A DNA stretch of 64,000 bases from a virus. The position numbers and the translations under genes are program-made. The stretch lies in IMG/VR virus record IMGVR_UViG_3300003890_000025, positions 15,149 to 79,148 of that record, one strand, 5' to 3'. The notes under the pieces are model-generated. The model had not been told where the DNA came from. It saw nothing but the letters and a program-made list of their open reading frames with translations, and did not search any database. Positions within the stretch are counted from its first letter, which is position 1, and each line of letters opens with the position of its first letter. Shown one piece after another: positions 3,351-29,557 of this stretch.

Positions 3351-6260
3351 TTAATTTACCTTCATAATAGAAACATAATTTGAGGCCTCAAGAGGTTCCA
3401 TATTTTTAGAAGCCCCACTGGCCTGGTATCCTAAAACGCTAATTACATCACCAACATTTGCATAAAGACCGGAACTTACAAGCACCCCAATAGTTTCTTG
3501 CCCCGCAGCAGTTGTGGCGCACGCCCTAACCCCCCTAGCAAACTCGATTCCATTTACATATATTACTGGAAACACAGAATAAGCAGTTGAAAATCCAACA
3601 CCAACGGTTAATAAAGCTTCTACGCGATAATATCCAGAAACAGGAACAATATATCTCCACGTATTCGTATATATAGCCTGATTTCCACCTCCAGCCCCAA
3701 CTACAGCATTATGTGTGTCATATTGTTTAGTTGGAAAATCTAAAAATCTACCGGAGGCGTTAGGCAAACTATTTCCTGCCGCCGAAGTATACCTAGCCGC
3801 CACCAACTCCCCGCCCATTAACGTCTGAGGGGATTGGATTTTGTGAATAACAATTTGATAATCAGACGAGCTGCCAGACCCAAACGTCCACGTTCCAACA
3901 GACGCAGAGACGGCATCAATATAATCACCTGCATTTAAATAAATTTCACTGTCAACTGAAACTACCACGTTTGACGTCGCCGCCGAAACTGGATACGTTC
4001 CTGTAGAAAACACAGTTCCATTTTTTCGCAAGCGAATAATTAAAGTACCACTACCAGAGCTTGAAGCTGGATAGCGAGCTGAAATTTTATAATAACCAGA
4101 TTCGCGAGCCGTGTATTTCCAGGAGGCTCCAGTCGTAACGGCAGCAACAGTATCATAATCACTTAAATTAAAATCAAGAACCGTGTCGCCAGATGGAACA
4201 CTACCGCTTCCTGATGTTTTATAATACCTAGCCGCAATCACCCGCCCACCAAAATCACTGCTTATTACTGAGTTAGATGACCAACCTTGGATGGGGACAG
4301 CAAACTCGGCTTTAACAAACAAATTGGTATCGGCAAAGTTTATGCCAGACCCACTATTCCACACAGTTCCTGGAGTTTCCATCATTAGTTTTACAGTAGT
4401 AGAGCTTACGGGTGCAATCACAACAACAACTTCGTCAGAAAGTAAGTCACCAATAAAACCAGTACCTAGCTGTGATCCGAAAAAATCTGTGGTTCCGCCC
4501 AATTGCACTTTATCCGTGTTGATTGTATATCCAGATGGCAAATTTATTAAATAACTTCCACTTCCAGCAGTGCCTGCCGTAGTATGTCTATAATTAACTC
4601 GAAAATAAGCATACTCACCTACTTTTCTAACAGAAATTGTATCTACAGACGTTGTACCCTTAGTTGGATTGGTGCCTGTTCCTGTAAAGGTAATTGTTCC
4701 TAAAAATTTTTCATCCTCAACAACACTTCCCCTTGCAATCTCTCTTGGCCCCACTATTACGTTGTCATAATTAATTGTCCAGCTTGTCGTTGTGTTTGTG
4801 GCCACATGGAATATTAGTCGGTACGAAGACGAGTTGGAATTAGATTGAAACTCTCCAATATACGTTCCAAAATCAGACGCCATCAAGTCTCTTTGCGATA
4901 GCTCAATTACTGAAGCATTGGTTACATCGTAAACATAAACCCTGACAAATCCATCTTGATAATTTGTGCTTGTCTTATAATCAAACGATACCCTTATCAC
5001 CTTAGCTCTATCGGCTAAGTCAATAGTGAAATCTGTACTAACACCCTCTCCTCGTAAGTTACTAGTTCCTTTTGAAAATAAAAAGTCAGCAGTTTTACGA
5101 AGCGGAGTAGTTGTGTTACGAGTTAATGTAATGGCCGCAGTTCCGCCTGTTCCGTCTACAGGTACCTCGCTTGCAGCATCTTTATAAGTATTCCAACCAG
5201 TTAAATTGCTGTCAGCGTCGGGATTGCTAATATAATTAATACCACCACTACCAGCCCCCACTTTACTTTCAGAGCCGTCATCATTTAACTGATAAAGGAA
5301 TCCGTCTGATTTAAAATATATTCGACCAAACCCAGAAGAAGGAGTCGTAGGAGTAGATATTTCAGCTAAAGTAACAGCATCAGAAAAGGTTTTATTAGAC
5401 ATGGACTGAGTAGCTGAGCTAGTTATAACTTGAGACTCACTACCATTAGGACCTAATTTAAACCTACTAGCTAGAGCAGAGTCATATAATACTCTAGCTA
5501 GAGTAGATCCTCCAGTACCTTCTACTGATAACCCAGCGTCTGCTGCAGTAGCATTTGTACCACCTTTATTTAAGGTTATATTATTATCTTCTACATCTAG
5601 CGTAGCTACGTTTAAAGTAGTAGTATCTCCTTGGACTGTTAAATTACCAGGTATTACTACAGTAGAGTTAGAAGCTCCTAAAGTTATATTATTAGCTCCT
5701 ACAGTAGCTCCTATAGATAAACTACCAGCTGCTGGTACGTCTATACCACCACTAGAACCAGTAGGTACTACTATCCTAGCGTCTGACACTACTAAACCAG
5801 TACCATTGGGGTCTAAATTTATATTACCGTTAGTATTAGTACTAGCTATAGTATTACCGTCTAATTCTAAGTTATCTACTTGTAATAAAGTCTTATTGGT
5901 TATATTTTGAGCTGTATCAGTACCTACTATAGTAGTATTAGCATTAGGTACTGTTAAAGTCCTAGTAGTACCAGTACTTATTGCAGATGCTTCAAATCTT
6001 AATTGTTTAGTATTATCAGAATTATCTTGTATCGTAAAATTATTATCTAATACGGTTATAGTATTAGTATTATCAAGAGACTTATTAGATACTGCTTGGG
6101 CTTTAGCTACCTGTAATACTATATCAGTTACAGCTGAGTTTCTTATATTTAATACATCGGCTGTACTATTATAGGCTAATTCCCCTTGGTTAGTTAAGGT
6201 AGGACTAGCTTCTGGTAGTATTACCGCTGATTTTTTTATTATAAATGGTTTTATAGTCAC
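3351..6260 (-). CDS. Tail fibre / receptor-binding protein with tandem C-terminal C1q-like domains
   Basis: 969 aa, GTG start with AAGGAG RBS; Thr/Ser/Gly-rich; two C-terminal repeats (GGRVIAARY..WKYTARESGYY; GGELVAARY..WRYIVPVSGYY). Confidence 0.8.
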   Translation of the reverse strand: MTIKPFIIKKSAVILPEASPTLTNQGELAYNSTADVLNIRNSAVTDIVLQVAKAQAVSNKSLDNTNTITVLDNNFTIQDNSDNTKQLRFEASAISTGTTRTLTVPNANTTIVGTDTAQNITNKTLLQVDNLELDGNTIASTNTNGNINLDPNGTGLVVSDARIVVPTGSSGGIDVPAAGSLSIGATVGANNITLGASNSTVVIPGNLTVQGDTTTLNVATLDVEDNNITLNKGGTNATAADAGLSVEGTGGSTLARVLYDSALASRFKLGPNGSESQVITSSATQSMSNKTFSDAVTLAEISTPTTPSSGFGRIYFKSDGFLYQLNDDGSESKVGAGSGGINYISNPDADSNLTGWNTYKDAASEVPVDGTGGTAAITLTRNTTTPLRKTADFLFSKGTSNLRGEGVSTDFTIDLADRAKVIRVSFDYKTSTNYQDGFVRVYVYDVTNASVIELSQRDLMASDFGTYIGEFQSNSNSSSYRLIFHVATNTTTSWTINYDNVIVGPREIARGSVVEDEKFLGTITFTGTGTNPTKGTTSVDTISVRKVGEYAYFRVNYRHTTAGTAGSGSYLINLPSGYTINTDKVQLGGTTDFFGSQLGTGFIGDLLSDEVVVVIAPVSSTTVKLMMETPGTVWNSGSGINFADTNLFVKAEFAVPIQGWSSNSVISSDFGGRVIAARYYKTSGSGSVPSGDTVLDFNLSDYDTVAAVTTGASWKYTARESGYYKISARYPASSSGSGTLIIRLRKNGTVFSTGTYPVSAATSNVVVSVDSEIYLNAGDYIDAVSASVGTWTFGSGSSSDYQIVIHKIQSPQTLMGGELVAARYTSAAGNSLPNASGRFLDFPTKQYDTHNAVVGAGGGNQAIYTNTWRYIVPVSGYYRVEALLTVGVGFSTAYSVFPVIYVNGIEFARGVRACATTAAGQETIGVLVSSGLYANVGDVISVLGYQASGASKNMEPLEASNYVSIMKVN

Positions 6261-9942: not shown

Positions 9943-12180
9943 TTACTTAGTTAGTAGTATTTTTATAAAAGTTAAAATCTTAAATACTAGCTTTCCAAAC
10001 GATCCTGAGGTCTGATGGGACGCTACAGGCTCGTCCCATACTGCTCCAGCTATCTGAGCCGCTGTAGGAAAGTCTAGTGTACCAGTTACGGAGTCATTAG
10101 CGTCGTACTCCACTCCTAGTAATACGTCACTAGGATCTGGCAGCCTTACAGTGCCAGTTAAATAGTCGTTACTATCAAAGTCTATCCCAAGCCTAACATC
10201 ATCTACACTAGGAACTCTTAAATTACCTGTTTTATTTGGAACAGCAGAATCGAATTGATAAGAAATCCCTAGTCTAACATTGTCCTCTCCTGGATCAGTA
10301 AAGTTAGTACTAGAGGTGGTAGTAAACGTACCTTCTGAGACAGCCTCTAATAAGTCAGATATAGGACTATACGCGTAGCACTTAAAGTAGTAGGTAGTGC
10401 TGGGTTTTAGGTTTGATAAGGTAACAGAATGTCCATAATGCTTCCAAGCGTATTGTATTCCATTAAAAGTGTCTTTTATTTCTGTCCAAATAAGTCCCCA
10501 ATCCTTCTTGTCTGGTAATGTAGACTGATGATCGTATACTCCACTAACTGTCCCGAACCGTATAAATGGTAAGGCTTTTATACGAAGCTGTTTTTTAACT
10601 GTATCCGATTGAGCGGCTGTATGGGTATAGACGAGATTTGTTTCTAAGGTTAAACTTGATCCCCCAATAAATGCTACTCGTGCTTCTTCAAACCTTGCTG
10701 TACCAAAACCAATTTCAATGATCTCCCCCACTTCAAAACCATTTGTGTCTGCTACATCTAAAATTGAAGTGCCAGCCCCAGAATCGGCATTAACAGTTGT
10801 AGAACCATGACCGACTACAGCCCCATTTTTACAATCAAATGTTATAGTGGCGGATGATGAGGTAATGGTTCCAATAACAACATTGTCTATCTCAAGTGGT
10901 CGGTTCCTCACGTTTTTAGGGTTTGTTCTTGCGCTTGTAAGATTACGATATTGAGGCGGTGTCGCCGTTGAGGTGGTGTTTGCTGTAGTATCAACATTTG
11001 ATGGAGTGGCGTTGTTAGTTCCAGAAATATAATCATTGTCACTTTTTGCCGAAGAAAAAGTAGTTGCTGATTCATAATCAATAGCTCGAAACGCAGTATA
11101 CATTTTGGGCACAAAATCATTAAATCTAGTTTCTATTGTAGAAGTTCCAGTTCCAGACGGACCATAGGCAAAGCGTCCCATTGTTATAATATTTCTACTT
11201 GCAATAAATGAACCAGAAGAACCAGAGGCCGTTGCTGGACCTAAAACAATACTATCACCACCAACGGTAGAAATATAACAATCTTGAATTCTTCTAGTAA
11301 AACCAGACGCTAAATTTATTTGCATATTTGACGTGCCGTTAAAAACACAATCTCTAACAATTATGTTAGAGTTTGTACCGAAAGTCACGCCACCATTTAA
11401 CGTATCCTCAGACCAAATTTTTTCGGCAGTTGCAATAAAAGTTGATGTATTTCCACTTAATGTTACACGAGACCCGCGTGACGCTGTAAAAAGCAAATTT
11501 GAATAAGTGGCATTTTTATCAAGAGTAAGCCCCAAATTATAATAACAGCTCGTAGAAGTAAAATTAGCCCAAATATATCTGATATTCGATCCGTCAGACT
11601 GCGGCGATCCCGATCTGGTTAATATACCGTTGACCGAGTGGCTAATTTTCCAAAATTGTATGTTAATGTTATTTGAGTTTGCAGCGGCGCTTAGGTCTAT
11701 ATACGACCAAGCCCCATAGGTTCCCTGCGTTGACGGGTTATTAAAAGTAAATTCTATCATAGTATTAATTGTCTTTATTCCGCGAACTACGGAGGTTGCT
11801 GTACTAGCTAGATTTATTACGTATAGTCCGTCTACGTAGAAAGTTCCGTTATCTTCGTACTCAGATATTATATTAGTACCTAGAGTAGTATTTGCTACAA
11901 AGTGATCTCCATCTTTAAATAAGAGTACAATTTCATAAGTATCTCCAGCAATAATAGAGTTTGGAAATGCATAGGATACTGTGATCTGTGTAGACGTATT
12001 ACTTGAAATTACTCTTTCGAGTCCAGCATTAGATCCAGTTAACATTCTTAGAGTAAAATTAGATAAATTATTACCTACAGTAGGCCAAGAAGCTCCTGTA
12101 TTAGTTAGGGTAGTAGTAGATCCTGCGGTAGCAGTTGTACCAGGAGTGGTTATACTATAGGTTCCTGACCAGTTAGCAAT
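9943..12180 (-). CDS. Fibre/spike protein with FN3-like C-terminal region; probable ATT start
   Basis: Frame stays open 45 codons upstream of ATG 12045 to ATT 12180, 8 nt after AGGAGG; HSVTLSNLKPSTTYYFKCYA FN3-like motif; C-terminal P-x-x-x-DVRLG-type repeats. Confidence 0.7.
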   Translation of the reverse strand: MANWSGTYSITTPGTTATAGSTTTLTNTGASWPTVGNNLSNFTLRMLTGSNAGLERVISSNTSTQITVSYAFPNSIIAGDTYEIVLLFKDGDHFVANTTLGTNIISEYEDNGTFYVDGLYVINLASTATSVVRGIKTINTMIEFTFNNPSTQGTYGAWSYIDLSAAANSNNINIQFWKISHSVNGILTRSGSPQSDGSNIRYIWANFTSTSCYYNLGLTLDKNATYSNLLFTASRGSRVTLSGNTSTFIATAEKIWSEDTLNGGVTFGTNSNIIVRDCVFNGTSNMQINLASGFTRRIQDCYISTVGGDSIVLGPATASGSSGSFIASRNIITMGRFAYGPSGTGTSTIETRFNDFVPKMYTAFRAIDYESATTFSSAKSDNDYISGTNNATPSNVDTTANTTSTATPPQYRNLTSARTNPKNVRNRPLEIDNVVIGTITSSSATITFDCKNGAVVGHGSTTVNADSGAGTSILDVADTNGFEVGEIIEIGFGTARFEEARVAFIGGSSLTLETNLVYTHTAAQSDTVKKQLRIKALPFIRFGTVSGVYDHQSTLPDKKDWGLIWTEIKDTFNGIQYAWKHYGHSVTLSNLKPSTTYYFKCYAYSPISDLLEAVSEGTFTTTSSTNFTDPGEDNVRLGISYQFDSAVPNKTGNLRVPSVDDVRLGIDFDSNDYLTGTVRLPDPSDVLLGVEYDANDSVTGTLDFPTAAQIAGAVWDEPVASHQTSGSFGKLVFKILTFIKILLTK

Positions 12181-25495: not shown

Positions 25496-26064
25496 AACTC
25501 ATAGCTATAGACCTAGAGCTTAATAACCCTAAAACTAATCAATCTATAATCCAAATAGGTGCAGTGGTAGGAGATTTAAATTTAAAAACTATTATTGAGG
25601 AATATAAAGCCAATATTCGACTACCTGAAGGTGAACTACTACAGGACTATATTAGTAATTTAACTAATATCAAGCCCCAAGAAGTAGAAGGTAACGGATT
25701 AAGTCTAAAAGAGGCTGTAAAAGACCTCCATAACCTAGTCACTAAATACGACTGTTTAAAATCGCCTATAACGTGGGGTGGAGGTGACTTGCCACTCTTA
25801 CGTCAAAAGTACCTAGAATCTCTCAATGGTGAGCCTTTAAACACGTTTAATTGGCCTTTTGGTTGGAGGGAGCTGGACGTAAAAACAGTCTACCAGACTA
25901 GGTGTTTAGCTTTAGGCCTAAAACCACAGGGGTCTTTAGCTAAAAGTATGACTAAACTAGGCCTGAGGTTTCAGGGGACTAAGCATAACGCATTAGATGA
26001 CGCTAAGAATACTTTATTATTATATTATAAGTTATTGGAGGATTATAAAATTAGATTATGTTAA
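25492..26064 (+). CDS. DEDDh 3'-5' exonuclease
   Basis: AIDLEL, IIQIGAV, GGDL, HNALDDA. Confidence 0.88.
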   Translation: MKLIAIDLELNNPKTNQSIIQIGAVVGDLNLKTIIEEYKANIRLPEGELLQDYISNLTNIKPQEVEGNGLSLKEAVKDLHNLVTKYDCLKSPITWGGGDLPLLRQKYLESLNGEPLNTFNWPFGWRELDVKTVYQTRCLALGLKPQGSLAKSMTKLGLRFQGTKHNALDDAKNTLLLYYKLLEDYKIRLC

Positions 26065-26459
26065 ACTTTAAAATTCAATCTTTTATAAATATAGTTTTAA
26101 TTTTTATTCTTATTAATCTTAATCAACACTGTAATAACACTGATAAAACACCGATAAAGCCACCAACGACAGAACCCAGTCCTACTCCAGAGCCTAAGCC
26201 TGAAGAAAATTTAGTAGCTAAAGGTAAAGCTATTTACCGTAGAAACTGTATTAGTTGTCATAATATTAACCCTAAGTTAGTTGGTTCTGTAGGGCCTGAT
26301 TTATACGGGTCTAGCTTAGATTTATTAAGGTCTAAAGTTATATATGGAACTTACCCAAAAGGCTATAAACCTAAACGTAATACTAAAATAATGCCTAAGT
26401 TCCCTAGTCTTGAACCTAATATAGAGGCTATAAAAGAGTTTCTAAATTCTGATTTATAG
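26058..26459 (+). CDS. Exported monoheme c-type cytochrome
   Basis: Hydrophobic N-terminus, Pro-rich linker, KGKAIYRRNCISCH heme motif, GPDL, distal MPKF. Confidence 0.85.
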   Translation: MLNFKIQSFINIVLIFILINLNQHCNNTDKTPIKPPTTEPSPTPEPKPEENLVAKGKAIYRRNCISCHNINPKLVGSVGPDLYGSSLDLLRSKVIYGTYPKGYKPKRNTKIMPKFPSLEPNIEAIKEFLNSDL

Positions 26460-27110: not shown

Positions 27111-28010
27111 CTAATCATCATTAGTACTATCAAATGTTGAGTAATAGTCTTCATTTTCTTCTTCATCTTCCTTTGTATAATTTTTTAATCTTTCTATAGC
27201 TTCTTCTAACACTAAATCAAAACATTTAACACTTATAATTAAATCCTTTATTTTATCTATAGTAAAATTATGTGTCTTAGTTACCCATTTGCTTAACTCT
27301 GTTTCGCTAATATCAGGCATTTTATGCTTTAAATAAGCTTCTCTAGCTTTTTCTGTTAAAGGACCTATTTCTATAACAGTAGCGAACCTACTAGGTCTAC
27401 TAACTAAATTCTTAGGTATACGGTCTATATAGTTAGTAGTAGCTATATATACTACGTTATCTAGTTGTAATTCACCGTCTAATAGAGCTAAAAACCTACT
27501 ATTATTAACGTAATAATGGAAATCCTCCCAAATAACTACTATAGTTAGACTAGGTTGAACTATTCTGAGTTTAGTTATTAAGTTATAAAAATTATCAGGG
27601 TCAGGACTTAAAATACAAATACCTCCATTGTCAATAACAGTATTAGCTACTTTTAGTAGACATGAAGTCTTACCAGACCCCGCTGGGCCGTACATTAATA
27701 TACCCCTTTTATATAGCATGCCGTATTGTTTATACTTTTCTTTTGTTTCAGGTCTAAAAAATTTATTTATCTCATTTATAACTTTATGAGATTGTGAATC
27801 AGGTAAGTCTAATAATTCTTCAGTCTGTATAGTTTTAGGACCCAAATGTAACCCTATATGAGGTTTCTCCAATACCTCGTATACCCCTGGAGGTATTACC
27901 TCAGTAAATAAAGGCTTATTAGTAGGTGTTATATTACCACTAGGACTAATTGAAAACTCTGTATAAGTCTCTTTAATTAGTTTTACTTTATTTTTATTAA
28001 AAATACTCAT
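27111..28010 (-). CDS. AAA+ ATPase (classical clade)
   Basis: KRGILMYGPAGSGKTS, WEDF, LLDG, ATTN, SRPSRF; no GAFTGA. Confidence 0.85.
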   Translation of the reverse strand: MSIFNKNKVKLIKETYTEFSISPSGNITPTNKPLFTEVIPPGVYEVLEKPHIGLHLGPKTIQTEELLDLPDSQSHKVINEINKFFRPETKEKYKQYGMLYKRGILMYGPAGSGKTSCLLKVANTVIDNGGICILSPDPDNFYNLITKLRIVQPSLTIVVIWEDFHYYVNNSRFLALLDGELQLDNVVYIATTNYIDRIPKNLVSRPSRFATVIEIGPLTEKAREAYLKHKMPDISETELSKWVTKTHNFTIDKIKDLIISVKCFDLVLEEAIERLKNYTKEDEEENEDYYSTFDSTNDD

Positions 28011-28063: not shown

Positions 28064-28342
28064 CTACTGTATTTTAATATATTTAGGACACCACTCACTG
28101 TGGTAGTTACTCCGTATACTAGCAGCACCACATTCACATTTTACTTCACCCTTATTAAAATATAAACTGTAATTAGCTTTAAGGTCACTAAAACTAACTA
28201 ATTTAGTACTTTTAAAGTAAGTCCTATTACCAGTTATAGTAACGTAATCAGTAGAGTAGTCTATTTTATCAACTACCCAAGCATCACCTACTGAGTCATA
28301 TATAATACTACCTACTCTAATTTCATAAAGGTTAATTGCCAT
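28064..28342 (-). CDS. Hypothetical with C-terminal Zn finger
   Basis: CECGA...HSEWCP; late-promoter-like AAACAAATA just upstream. Confidence 0.55.
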   Translation of the reverse strand: MAINLYEIRVGSIIYDSVGDAWVVDKIDYSTDYVTITGNRTYFKSTKLVSFSDLKANYSLYFNKGEVKCECGAASIRSNYHSEWCPKYIKIQ

Positions 28343-28694
28343 TACGTAAATATTTGTTTTACGTTTACTAGCACTTTAAACCTAGTTACTCAATTATAAA
28401 CTAACCTACTCTACTTACTTATATAACTTACAAAATAACCTAATCCATAACTAGTTATTTATTAGCTAGTACTAAGTCTATTAGTTACTCAATATAATTT
28501 AAAACCTTACCACCTAGTACTAGTCTTAGACCTAATACTAAACTTAGCTTTAAACGCTTTTAAAAGCTCTATAAGCTTTTTAAATAGGTGTACGTGTAGG
28601 GTAGTAGCCTAACACTAGTCTAAACTCTTATAAAGGCTTTAAAACAGTTATAGCTAGTATAGTCTATTTATAGTTACTCGTTGGTTAGGTTAGC

Positions 28695-28786
28695 TGCTGG
28701 GAGGTTACTCGGGTGGAGGAGGGGAGAGTGAGTGTGTGGGAAGCCCCCGACCGAGCCCCCTCGACGTCCCCTGGGGGGAGGGGGGT
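28695..28786. other. G/C island at the transcription divergence point (candidate terminus/packaging or origin signal)
   Basis: G-runs and C-runs (CCCCCTCGACGTCCCCTGGGGGGAGGGGGG) within very AT-rich non-coding DNA. Confidence 0.4.
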
Positions 28787-28919
28787 TGCAATAATCATGC
28801 CAAAATGTTAGGCATGACTTTTGCTACTGCAATAATCGTGCCAGTTAATTGGCATAGTTCTTGCTATAGCAATTATAATGCCTAAGAATAGCTGTTGGTC
28901 CATTGGCCCATTTCTTGCT
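28787..28919. promoter_or_regulatory. Array of six alternating-orientation sigma-54 (-24/-12) sites
   Basis: (-)TGGCATGATTATTGCA 28787-28802; (+)AGGCATGACTTTTGCT 28810-28825; (-)TGGCACGATTATTGCA 28828-28843; (+)TGGCATAGTTCTTGCT 28850-28865; (-)AGGCATTATAATTGCT 28868-28883; (+)TGGCCCATTTCTTGCT 28904-28919. Confidence 0.85.
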
Positions 28920-28972
28920 AATGACCCATATATATATTTATATAAGTTTAAATTATTAATTTATTTATAAAG

Positions 28973-29115
28973 TGTTTAAACTTTAGACAGAGTGTCTAAA
29001 AGTTAATAGCTTAATAATAATCCATAGTTAGCTTAAACTGTCTAAAAGTTAGTCTAGTTTTTAAAATAGCTAGGTCTGTTTTATCAAGGACTTAGCTAGT
29101 GGCACAGGCTATGCA
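28973..29115 (+). promoter_or_regulatory. Enhancer-type sigma-54 promoter: UAS-like sites + IHF site + -24/-12
   Basis: TGTTTAAACTTTAGACA (28973), TGTCTAAAAGTTA (28993, 29039), IHF TATCAAGGACTTA (29082-29094), TGGCACAGGCTATGCA (29100-29115). Confidence 0.75.
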
Positions 29116-29160
29116 TTAGTTAAAGTGTAGACTGAACGGTTACTAAAGAGAGGTGTTAAT

Positions 29161-29382
29161 ATGCTTTCTATGTTTATTGAAGAATATCAAGACCTATCGA
29201 CAGGGGATTGGTATAGAGCTTACGTAGACGTATGGTCTAATAGACTAGGCTATAAAGAGCTAGACGTTAGTAGCGTGGAGAAGTATATACACGGTATGTG
29301 GGTTAGGGTGTTAGAAGTACCTGACCACGTTAAAGACGGGCTCTTAGAGACTGCCGTATTTAAATATGAAAATAGAGTTTAG
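29161..29382 (+). CDS. Small early-type hypothetical protein
   Basis: GAGGTG RBS; first gene after the sigma-54 promoter. Confidence 0.65.
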   Translation: MLSMFIEEYQDLSTGDWYRAYVDVWSNRLGYKELDVSSVEKYIHGMWVRVLEVPDHVKDGLLETAVFKYENRV

Positions 29383-29425
29383 TCATTAAAGGTTTTATTT
29401 TGGTCATTTAAAAGGAGGTATATAT

Positions 29426-29557
29426 ATGGATAGAGTTTTAAACGTAATCTTAATAATAGCAGCCACTGTGGCTATATATAGCACTGTAATGGCTTTTAAA
29501 GAGTTTGACCCTCATCAAGTAGCACTAGATTTATTAAGTATACGAGAGGGGAGGTAA
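29426..29557 (+). CDS. Small single-TM protein (43 aa)
   Basis: AAGGAGGT RBS; MDRVLNVILIIAATVAIYSTVMAF. Confidence 0.65.
   Translation: MDRVLNVILIIAATVAIYSTVMAFKEFDPHQVALDLLSIREGR

Follow-up and report, generated by a model that had tools for sequence, protein, structure and literature searches.

The rightward operon of an uncultured tailed phage is probably driven by a genuine sigma-54 promoter, enhancer-dependent and taken over from a regulon of Bdellovibrionota, a reading to which we assign a probability of about 75% on evidence that is in silico throughout. The source is a 79,148-bp IMG/VR virus record with a CheckV completeness estimate of 95%, and the window that we analysed, a stretch of 64,000 nt, corresponds to bases 15149-79148 of that record. 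The terminase, portal and head genes lie to the left of the region on the minus strand, and the plus-strand right arm, which extends from the ORF at 29161 to ~47969, begins with small ORFs that are followed by amidoligase, amidotransferase, Erf, methyltransferase and other genes. Between the two arms lies the promoter region, an 818-bp divergent gap bounded by an ORF at 28064-28342 (minus) and an ORF at 29161-29382 (plus). The GC content of the phage is 34%. No match was obtained when 6 kb of it was compared with named phages by megablast, and tblastn with its DNA polymerase gave identities of 29% at most. In addition, no tRNA genes were found in the phage, and an Rfam search of 28300-29500 returned nothing meaningful.

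All of the motifs listed in the original prediction were present where it had placed them (Table 1). The sigma-54 box has GG and GC at the canonical spacing and differs from TGGCAC-N5-TTGCW at a single position, an A for T at -15. With the C of GC set at -12, transcription is predicted to start at ~29126. The box is intergenic and correctly oriented, and it lies 45 nt from an ORF that has a Shine-Dalgarno sequence; this first ORF had no Pfam or PHROG match. A consensus scan of 28900-29160 detected no rightward sigma-70-like promoter. The upstream dyads are spaced as TGT-N11-ACA (TGTC-N9-GACA), and the first dyad together with the second site makes up three good half-sites in alternating orientation, an arrangement that was also seen at host promoters. 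The right half of the proximal site is poor, deviating at 3 of 8 positions; an exact 13-nt repeat links this site to the second one (28993-29005 = 29039-29051).

Table 1. Elements of the predicted promoter region (window coordinates) and orthologous boxes in related phages (locus coordinates)
Element	Position	Strand	Relative to predicted +1	Description
Sigma-54-type box array	28787-28919			six boxes in three back-to-back pairs
Distal activator dyad	28973-28989		centre ~-145	TGTTTAAA-c-TTTAGACA; 17-bp near-palindrome with one arm mismatch
Second site	28993-29009		centre ~-125	20 bp after the first; left half perfect TGTCTAAA, right half degenerate
Proximal site	29039-29055		centre ~-79	left half perfect TGTCTAAA; 44 nt before the box
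IHF-like element	29082-29094	+	~-44 to -32	exact WATCAANNNNTTR
Sigma-54 -24/-12 box	29100-29115	+		TGGCAC-N5-ATGCA
Shine-Dalgarno and first rightward ORF	29146-29382	+		73 aa; ATG at 29161
Orthologous box in G007	L204 1901-1916			
Orthologous box in G008	L200 1642-1657	minus		leftward

We then asked how often such motifs occur in the phage. When boxes were counted over the whole 79,148-bp genome as GG/GC together with a match at 6 or more of the 7 remaining consensus positions, 11 were found, and 7 of the 11 were located at 28787-29115; the background in unrelated phage loci (792 kb) was 0.047 per kb. Of the seven clustered boxes, only that at 29100 has a ribosome-binding site and an ORF at the usual distance, and outside the array it is the sole intergenic, correctly oriented sigma-54-type box. 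Taken alone, the IHF consensus occurs at chance frequency (8 matches in 64 kb versus 8.1 expected), and TGTCTAAA is also near chance (7 found versus 5 expected), with 3 of its 7 copies in the promoter region. Furthermore, a matrix built from 20 Bdellovibrionota enhancer dyads was scanned over the whole phage genome. It gave its top score, 18.4 bits, at 28973, 110 nt upstream of the box, and the next score was 10.9 bits; the site at 29039 ranked fourth. In a control with 50 shuffles, the maximum was 18.3 bits versus 18.4 at 28973.

To see whether the elements are kept in other phages, we examined relatives identified by a terminase search (74-86 kb), with identities of 55-56% for G006/G007 and G008 and 40-41% for G009 and G010. 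Sigma-54-type boxes are carried by all of G006-G010; G006/G007 have a single perfect box, G007 without an array, and G010 has eight perfect boxes versus none in the control. In G007 and G008, TGT-N11-ACA dyads are located 42-43 nt before the orthologous box, compared with 44 nt here, and an IHF-like TATC...TTAG element with at most one mismatch precedes the box by 16 nt in G007 and 18 nt in G008; the background of IHF matches at this stringency is ~1.1 per kb. The best dyads of the 17-21 kb loci of G006/G007 and G008 were found in the control region with the orthologous box. The length of the 5' UTR, 35-39 nt, is likewise kept between the phage and G007. The flanking DNA is barely alignable between the phage and G007/G008, and the first ORF here is unrelated to the one that the G007 promoter precedes; thus, the motifs have been kept by selection. 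The promoter module is missing from G009 and G010, and the first gene of G009 uses a sigma-70-type promoter. A strict scan of viral contigs for the dyad plus box gave 0 matches at gaps of 30-60 and 90-120 nt, and a scan of viral contigs for the half-site junction gave 66 matches, approximately the chance number and mostly in coding sequence. With a box one mismatch from consensus and a module retained in two diverged relatives, the proposed enhancer-dependent sigma-54 promoter is supported as a prediction.

The upstream sites point to a specific group of bacteria. We searched for TGTC-N9-GACA at 30-60 nt upstream of TGGCAY-N5-TTGC, a pattern in which only the four outer bases of each dyad arm are fixed, and found it in 81 of 301 sampled Bdellovibrionota genomes, versus 0 of 301 with the reversed-pattern control. 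Most of the bacterial dyads nevertheless had the sequence TGTCTAAA-n-TTTAGACA, the dyad that the phage carries. Outside this phylum, none of 88 SAR324 genomes and 3 of 101 Planctomycetota genomes had the pattern, and the A/T-rich core was absent from all three. Most host dyads lie 37-59 nt before the box, whereas the best phage dyad is at -145; when the gap was set to 90-120 nt, the position of that phage dyad, 16 of 101 Bdellovibrionota genomes had the pattern (control 0). Among 20 host examples the gaps were 37-43, 48-49 and 57-58 nt, and the proximal phage gap of 44 nt falls just past the main class of 37-43 nt. In genome G200, 37 dyads were found versus 3 in the control. A box is faced by 11 of its 20 best dyads and 9 have no box nearby; 10 of the 11 box-facing dyads lie at gaps of 37-40, 46-48 or 56-59 nt, where ~1.25 would be expected by chance. 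Such gaps indicate helical phasing, as an activator site shows. The predicted activator sites at -145, -125 and -79 therefore match a dyad that is phased with Bdellovibrionota sigma-54 boxes, although the role of the phage copies is read from this likeness.

Most genes downstream of the host promoters code for signal-peptide proteins without a Pfam family, and others encode a PLD-like phospholipase and an outer-membrane beta-barrel protein. A near-consensus IHF site (at most one mismatch) was present in only 5 of 20 host promoters, and an IHF site is thus not a constant part of them. No activator gene was found within 1.5 kb of 22 host loci (the 20 dyad-plus-box promoters and two loci of MAG G001). 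Thus, the suggestion that a motif search of host genomes would identify the activator held as far as the motif is concerned, with the dyad and box in 81 of 301 genomes, but the neighbourhood of the sites did not yield the activator. The dyad TGTCTAAA-n-TTTAGACA is present in multiple copies in G200 and in other Bdellovibrionota (L205-L224, L232-L251), about half of them phased with sigma-54 boxes before genes for secreted proteins, and the set looks like an undescribed regulon; a literature search gave no description of the dyad or of a sigma-54 regulon in Bdellovibrio. Downstream of a conserved dyad and box in two Bdellovibrio-like genomes (3.8 Mb) there is a unit of ~70 nt whose end is formed by a GC-rich hairpin and nine consecutive T (L225 ~3475-3652 and L226 ~3580-3760, minus strand). 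This unit is a candidate sigma-54-dependent small RNA, and it matched no Rfam family. Two Oligoflexales-like MAGs, G001 and G002, carry near-identical tandem half-sites (a dyad, 3 nt and the next half-site) upstream of cysS, at ~1001-1037 of 2-kb loci (L102/L108 in G001, L106 in G002). No sigma-54 box was found within ~1 kb of these cysS sites, so the dyad-binding protein may also act at other types of promoter.

We also searched the phage for regulators of its own. Neither PF00158 (the activator domain) nor PF04552 (the sigma-54 DNA-binding domain) was matched anywhere in the phage genome, even at E = 10, and the earlier statement that no activator is encoded in the window could thus be extended to the whole genome. 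The AAA ATPase at 27111-28010 was considered as a hidden activator and rejected, as it is a classical AAA protein (PF00004) without the sigma-54 interaction domain; homologues of it occur across many unrelated phages, and a box cluster was present in 0 of 80 of those loci. The phage also carries a cytochrome c gene (window 26058-26459), likely a host-derived auxiliary gene, whose product has its nearest relatives in MAGs of Oligoflexales, Bacteriovoracales and Halobacteriovoraceae (44-54% identity). Two cytochrome c matches labelled 'uncultured' were also traced to Bdellovibrionota genomes. The Bdellovibrionota MAGs that gave cytochrome c matches encode sigma-54, and candidate hosts with 30-36% GC have himA-like IHF-alpha-like proteins and 12-18 PF00158 matches each. 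When 151 Bdellovibrionota genomes were searched for the portal protein, a single distant match (23% identity) was obtained, and thus no prophage-type link to a host. G001 and G002, at ~50% GC, are unlikely hosts because their base composition does not match that of the phage. Since the dyad of the phage is also an enhancer of Bdellovibrionota sigma-54 promoters, a low-GC member of this phylum is the most likely host. The original guess of a predatory host is supported in silico by the same dyad and box match, and the cytochrome c relatives give a separate clue to the host.

In the mechanism that we propose, host sigma-54 RNA polymerase would form a closed complex on the box, and a host NtrC-family activator would occupy the TGTCTAAA-type dyads near -145, -125 and -79. 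A bend at -44 to -32, probably made by IHF, would join the activator to the polymerase, and ATP hydrolysis would then open the promoter for transcription from ~29126 into the rightward operon. The bend at the IHF-like element is the weakest link of this scheme. The element that had been proposed as an IHF site is an exact consensus match and its position is kept in two relatives, but a single match is at chance level and host promoters lack a fixed site; a role of IHF in the promoter is only plausible. The phage sites copy the Bdellovibrionota enhancer, and activity of one specific host regulator is therefore probably required for the operon. The gating by a host activator that had been suggested earlier is thereby supported in silico, as 28973 is the best genome-wide match to the host enhancer motif, and the rightward operon would fire only when that regulator is active. 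The operon may also be expressed early and may be tied to a phase of the host life cycle.

A connection that the original prediction did not make is to the box array directly upstream of the promoter. The leftward boxes of the array have the dyad enhancer on their upstream side at 89-170 nt, which is within working distance, and the enhancer may therefore serve both directions. Arrays of a similar kind are present in the relatives G008, G009 and G010. At 28700-28790 of the window, runs of 6-9 G (or C) lie directly beside the sigma-54 boxes, and the relatives G007-G010 have such runs next to their boxes too (L200 1845-1875, L201 1590-1680, L204 1585-1600).

This arrangement raises the alternative that the dyads mainly serve the array, especially its leftward boxes, or that read-through from the array drives the operon, with the box at 29100 minor or redundant. 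The distance to the leftward boxes is within the host range, transcription from a rightward box at 28904 would pass through the region, and arrays are retained even in relatives that lack the single promoter. However, G007 has kept the box, the IHF-like element and the proximal dyad together as one unit although it lacks an array, and the length of the 5' UTR is conserved with them; we therefore regard this alternative as unlikely. The packing of many sigma-54 boxes into 330 bp in a phage without an activator gene could also suggest a decoy that titrates sigma-54 polymerase and activator away from the host regulon without productive transcription, and bacteria do have non-productive sigma-54 binding sites (PMC4591121). 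Against a decoy, the elements are spaced as they are in productive host promoters, the ORF and its ribosome-binding site come at a normal distance downstream, and each genome copy offers only a handful of sites, which makes such a function quite improbable.

The dyads could instead be operators of a helix-turn-helix repressor of the phage or host in a lambda-like switch, with the sigma-54-like box nearby only incidentally. In their favour, 17-bp pseudo-palindromes with a 20-bp spacing in a divergent region resemble lambdoid operators, and dyads without a nearby box exist at cysS in G001/G002 (within ~1 kb) and among the best dyads of G200 (9 of 20). We consider this highly improbable, as the dyad strongly co-occurs, in phase, with host sigma-54 boxes, no sigma-70-type promoter overlaps the dyads, and there are no further dyads elsewhere in the phage genome, where a phage repressor would be expected to have several. 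Finally, short A/T-rich motifs might have come together by chance and without function, as the chance frequencies of the IHF consensus and of the 8-mer would allow, but this is hardly credible for a module that is conserved in two diverged phages and in which the best host-matrix match in 79 kb lies less than 130 nt from the box.

Next, we compared the promoter with described systems. The closest described architecture is that of the glmY/glmZ promoters of Enterobacteriaceae, which depend on the NtrC-family response regulator GlrR/QseF, IHF and sigma-54, and which have three upstream GlrR dyads (consensus TGTC-N10-GACA) with IHF sites between enhancer and promoter (PMC3045617). The phage region has the same order of three TGTC...GACA-type dyads, an IHF-like site between and a -24/-12 box, and the related dyad and box of Bdellovibrio-like genomes precede a short terminator-ended unit, as would be the case for a small RNA. 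In contrast to glmY/glmZ, the dyads here are TGTC-N9-GACA with an A/T-rich core, the phylum and the targets are different, and the module is found in a phage. Because the spacing is N9 here and in the hosts and N10 for GlrR, the phage promoter is not a member of the GlrR/QseF regulon. At nifH-type promoters, NifA acts from a TGT-N10-ACA upstream activator sequence together with IHF and sigma-54. The phage promoter shares the upstream TGT...ACA dyad, the IHF-like bend site and the -24/-12 promoter with them, but it has N11 spacing, conserved bases that extend to TGTCTAAA and no nif context. The NtrC/NifA-class layout proposed earlier is thus retained for the combination of dyads with a sigma-54 box, but not for the NifA spacing, as the sites here are TGT-N11-ACA rather than TGT-N10-ACA.

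Other activators offer leads only. PilR sites consist of TGTC repeats. The FleQ box of Pseudomonas, quoted as GTCaNTAAAtTGAC (PMC6120874), is one base shorter than the phage dyad. Like the phage sites, FleQ and PilR sites are GTC/GAC-ended A/T-rich dyads, and they are bound by sigma-54 activators; the host genes found here encode secreted proteins, unlike the flagellar and pilin genes of FleQ and PilR. To our knowledge, few phages use host sigma-54. The virulent Pseudomonas aeruginosa phage YuA (Ceyssens et al. 2008) is described as having a sigma-54-like promoter and transcription that depends partly on host sigma-54 (PMC5053324, PMC10914365). The texts consulted describe for YuA no enhancer/IHF architecture and no match to a host regulon, unlike the phage here, and its host and phage lineage are unrelated to those studied here. 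The Bdellovibrio phage phi1422 carries a gene for a sigma-54-type regulator (PMC3391216); it shares the host phylum and the link to sigma-54, whereas the phage here has the DNA sites and no regulator gene. The use of sigma-54 by a phage therefore has precedent, and the new part is the match to a host enhancer that can be traced to a specific phylum.

With this promoter, gating of a phage operon by a host signal-transduction regulator becomes concrete and testable, and the host of an uncultured phage family would be predicted from the mimicry of regulatory sites. The host sites also provide an initial outline of a Bdellovibrionota sigma-54 enhancer regulon, for which the literature search found no description. 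A broader and rather doubtful possibility is that the first operon of a virus that infects predatory bacteria is timed through a phylum-wide, previously undescribed Bdellovibrionota sigma-54 regulon, defined by the dyad TGTCTAAA-n-TTTAGACA, that controls secreted proteins and the candidate small RNA. If this were true, infection would be restricted to a single stage of the predator life cycle, and the phage enhancer would provide a handle on the regulator of that stage. If the regulon tracks the stage of predation, the phage would sense the life cycle of a bacterial predator.

Several further observations were made in other viral genomes. In G010 (L202, G010:C1:13000-30000), five of the eight perfect TGGCAY-N5-TTGCW boxes are single, lie on the plus strand in the orientation of the genes and fall within coding sequences or at their ends, and none has a host-type dyad nearby. 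G010 also has two near-duplicate early control regions (L202 2280-2500 and 3560-3750), in which AAATGYGAG repeats surround sigma-70-type TTGACA / TGcTATAAT promoters, a control logic unlike that of the phage described here. In addition, two unrelated viral contigs have 3-4 TGTCTAAA half-sites in a row (L143 ~10300-10350 and L151 ~1810-1860), which are possible operator arrays of other phages.
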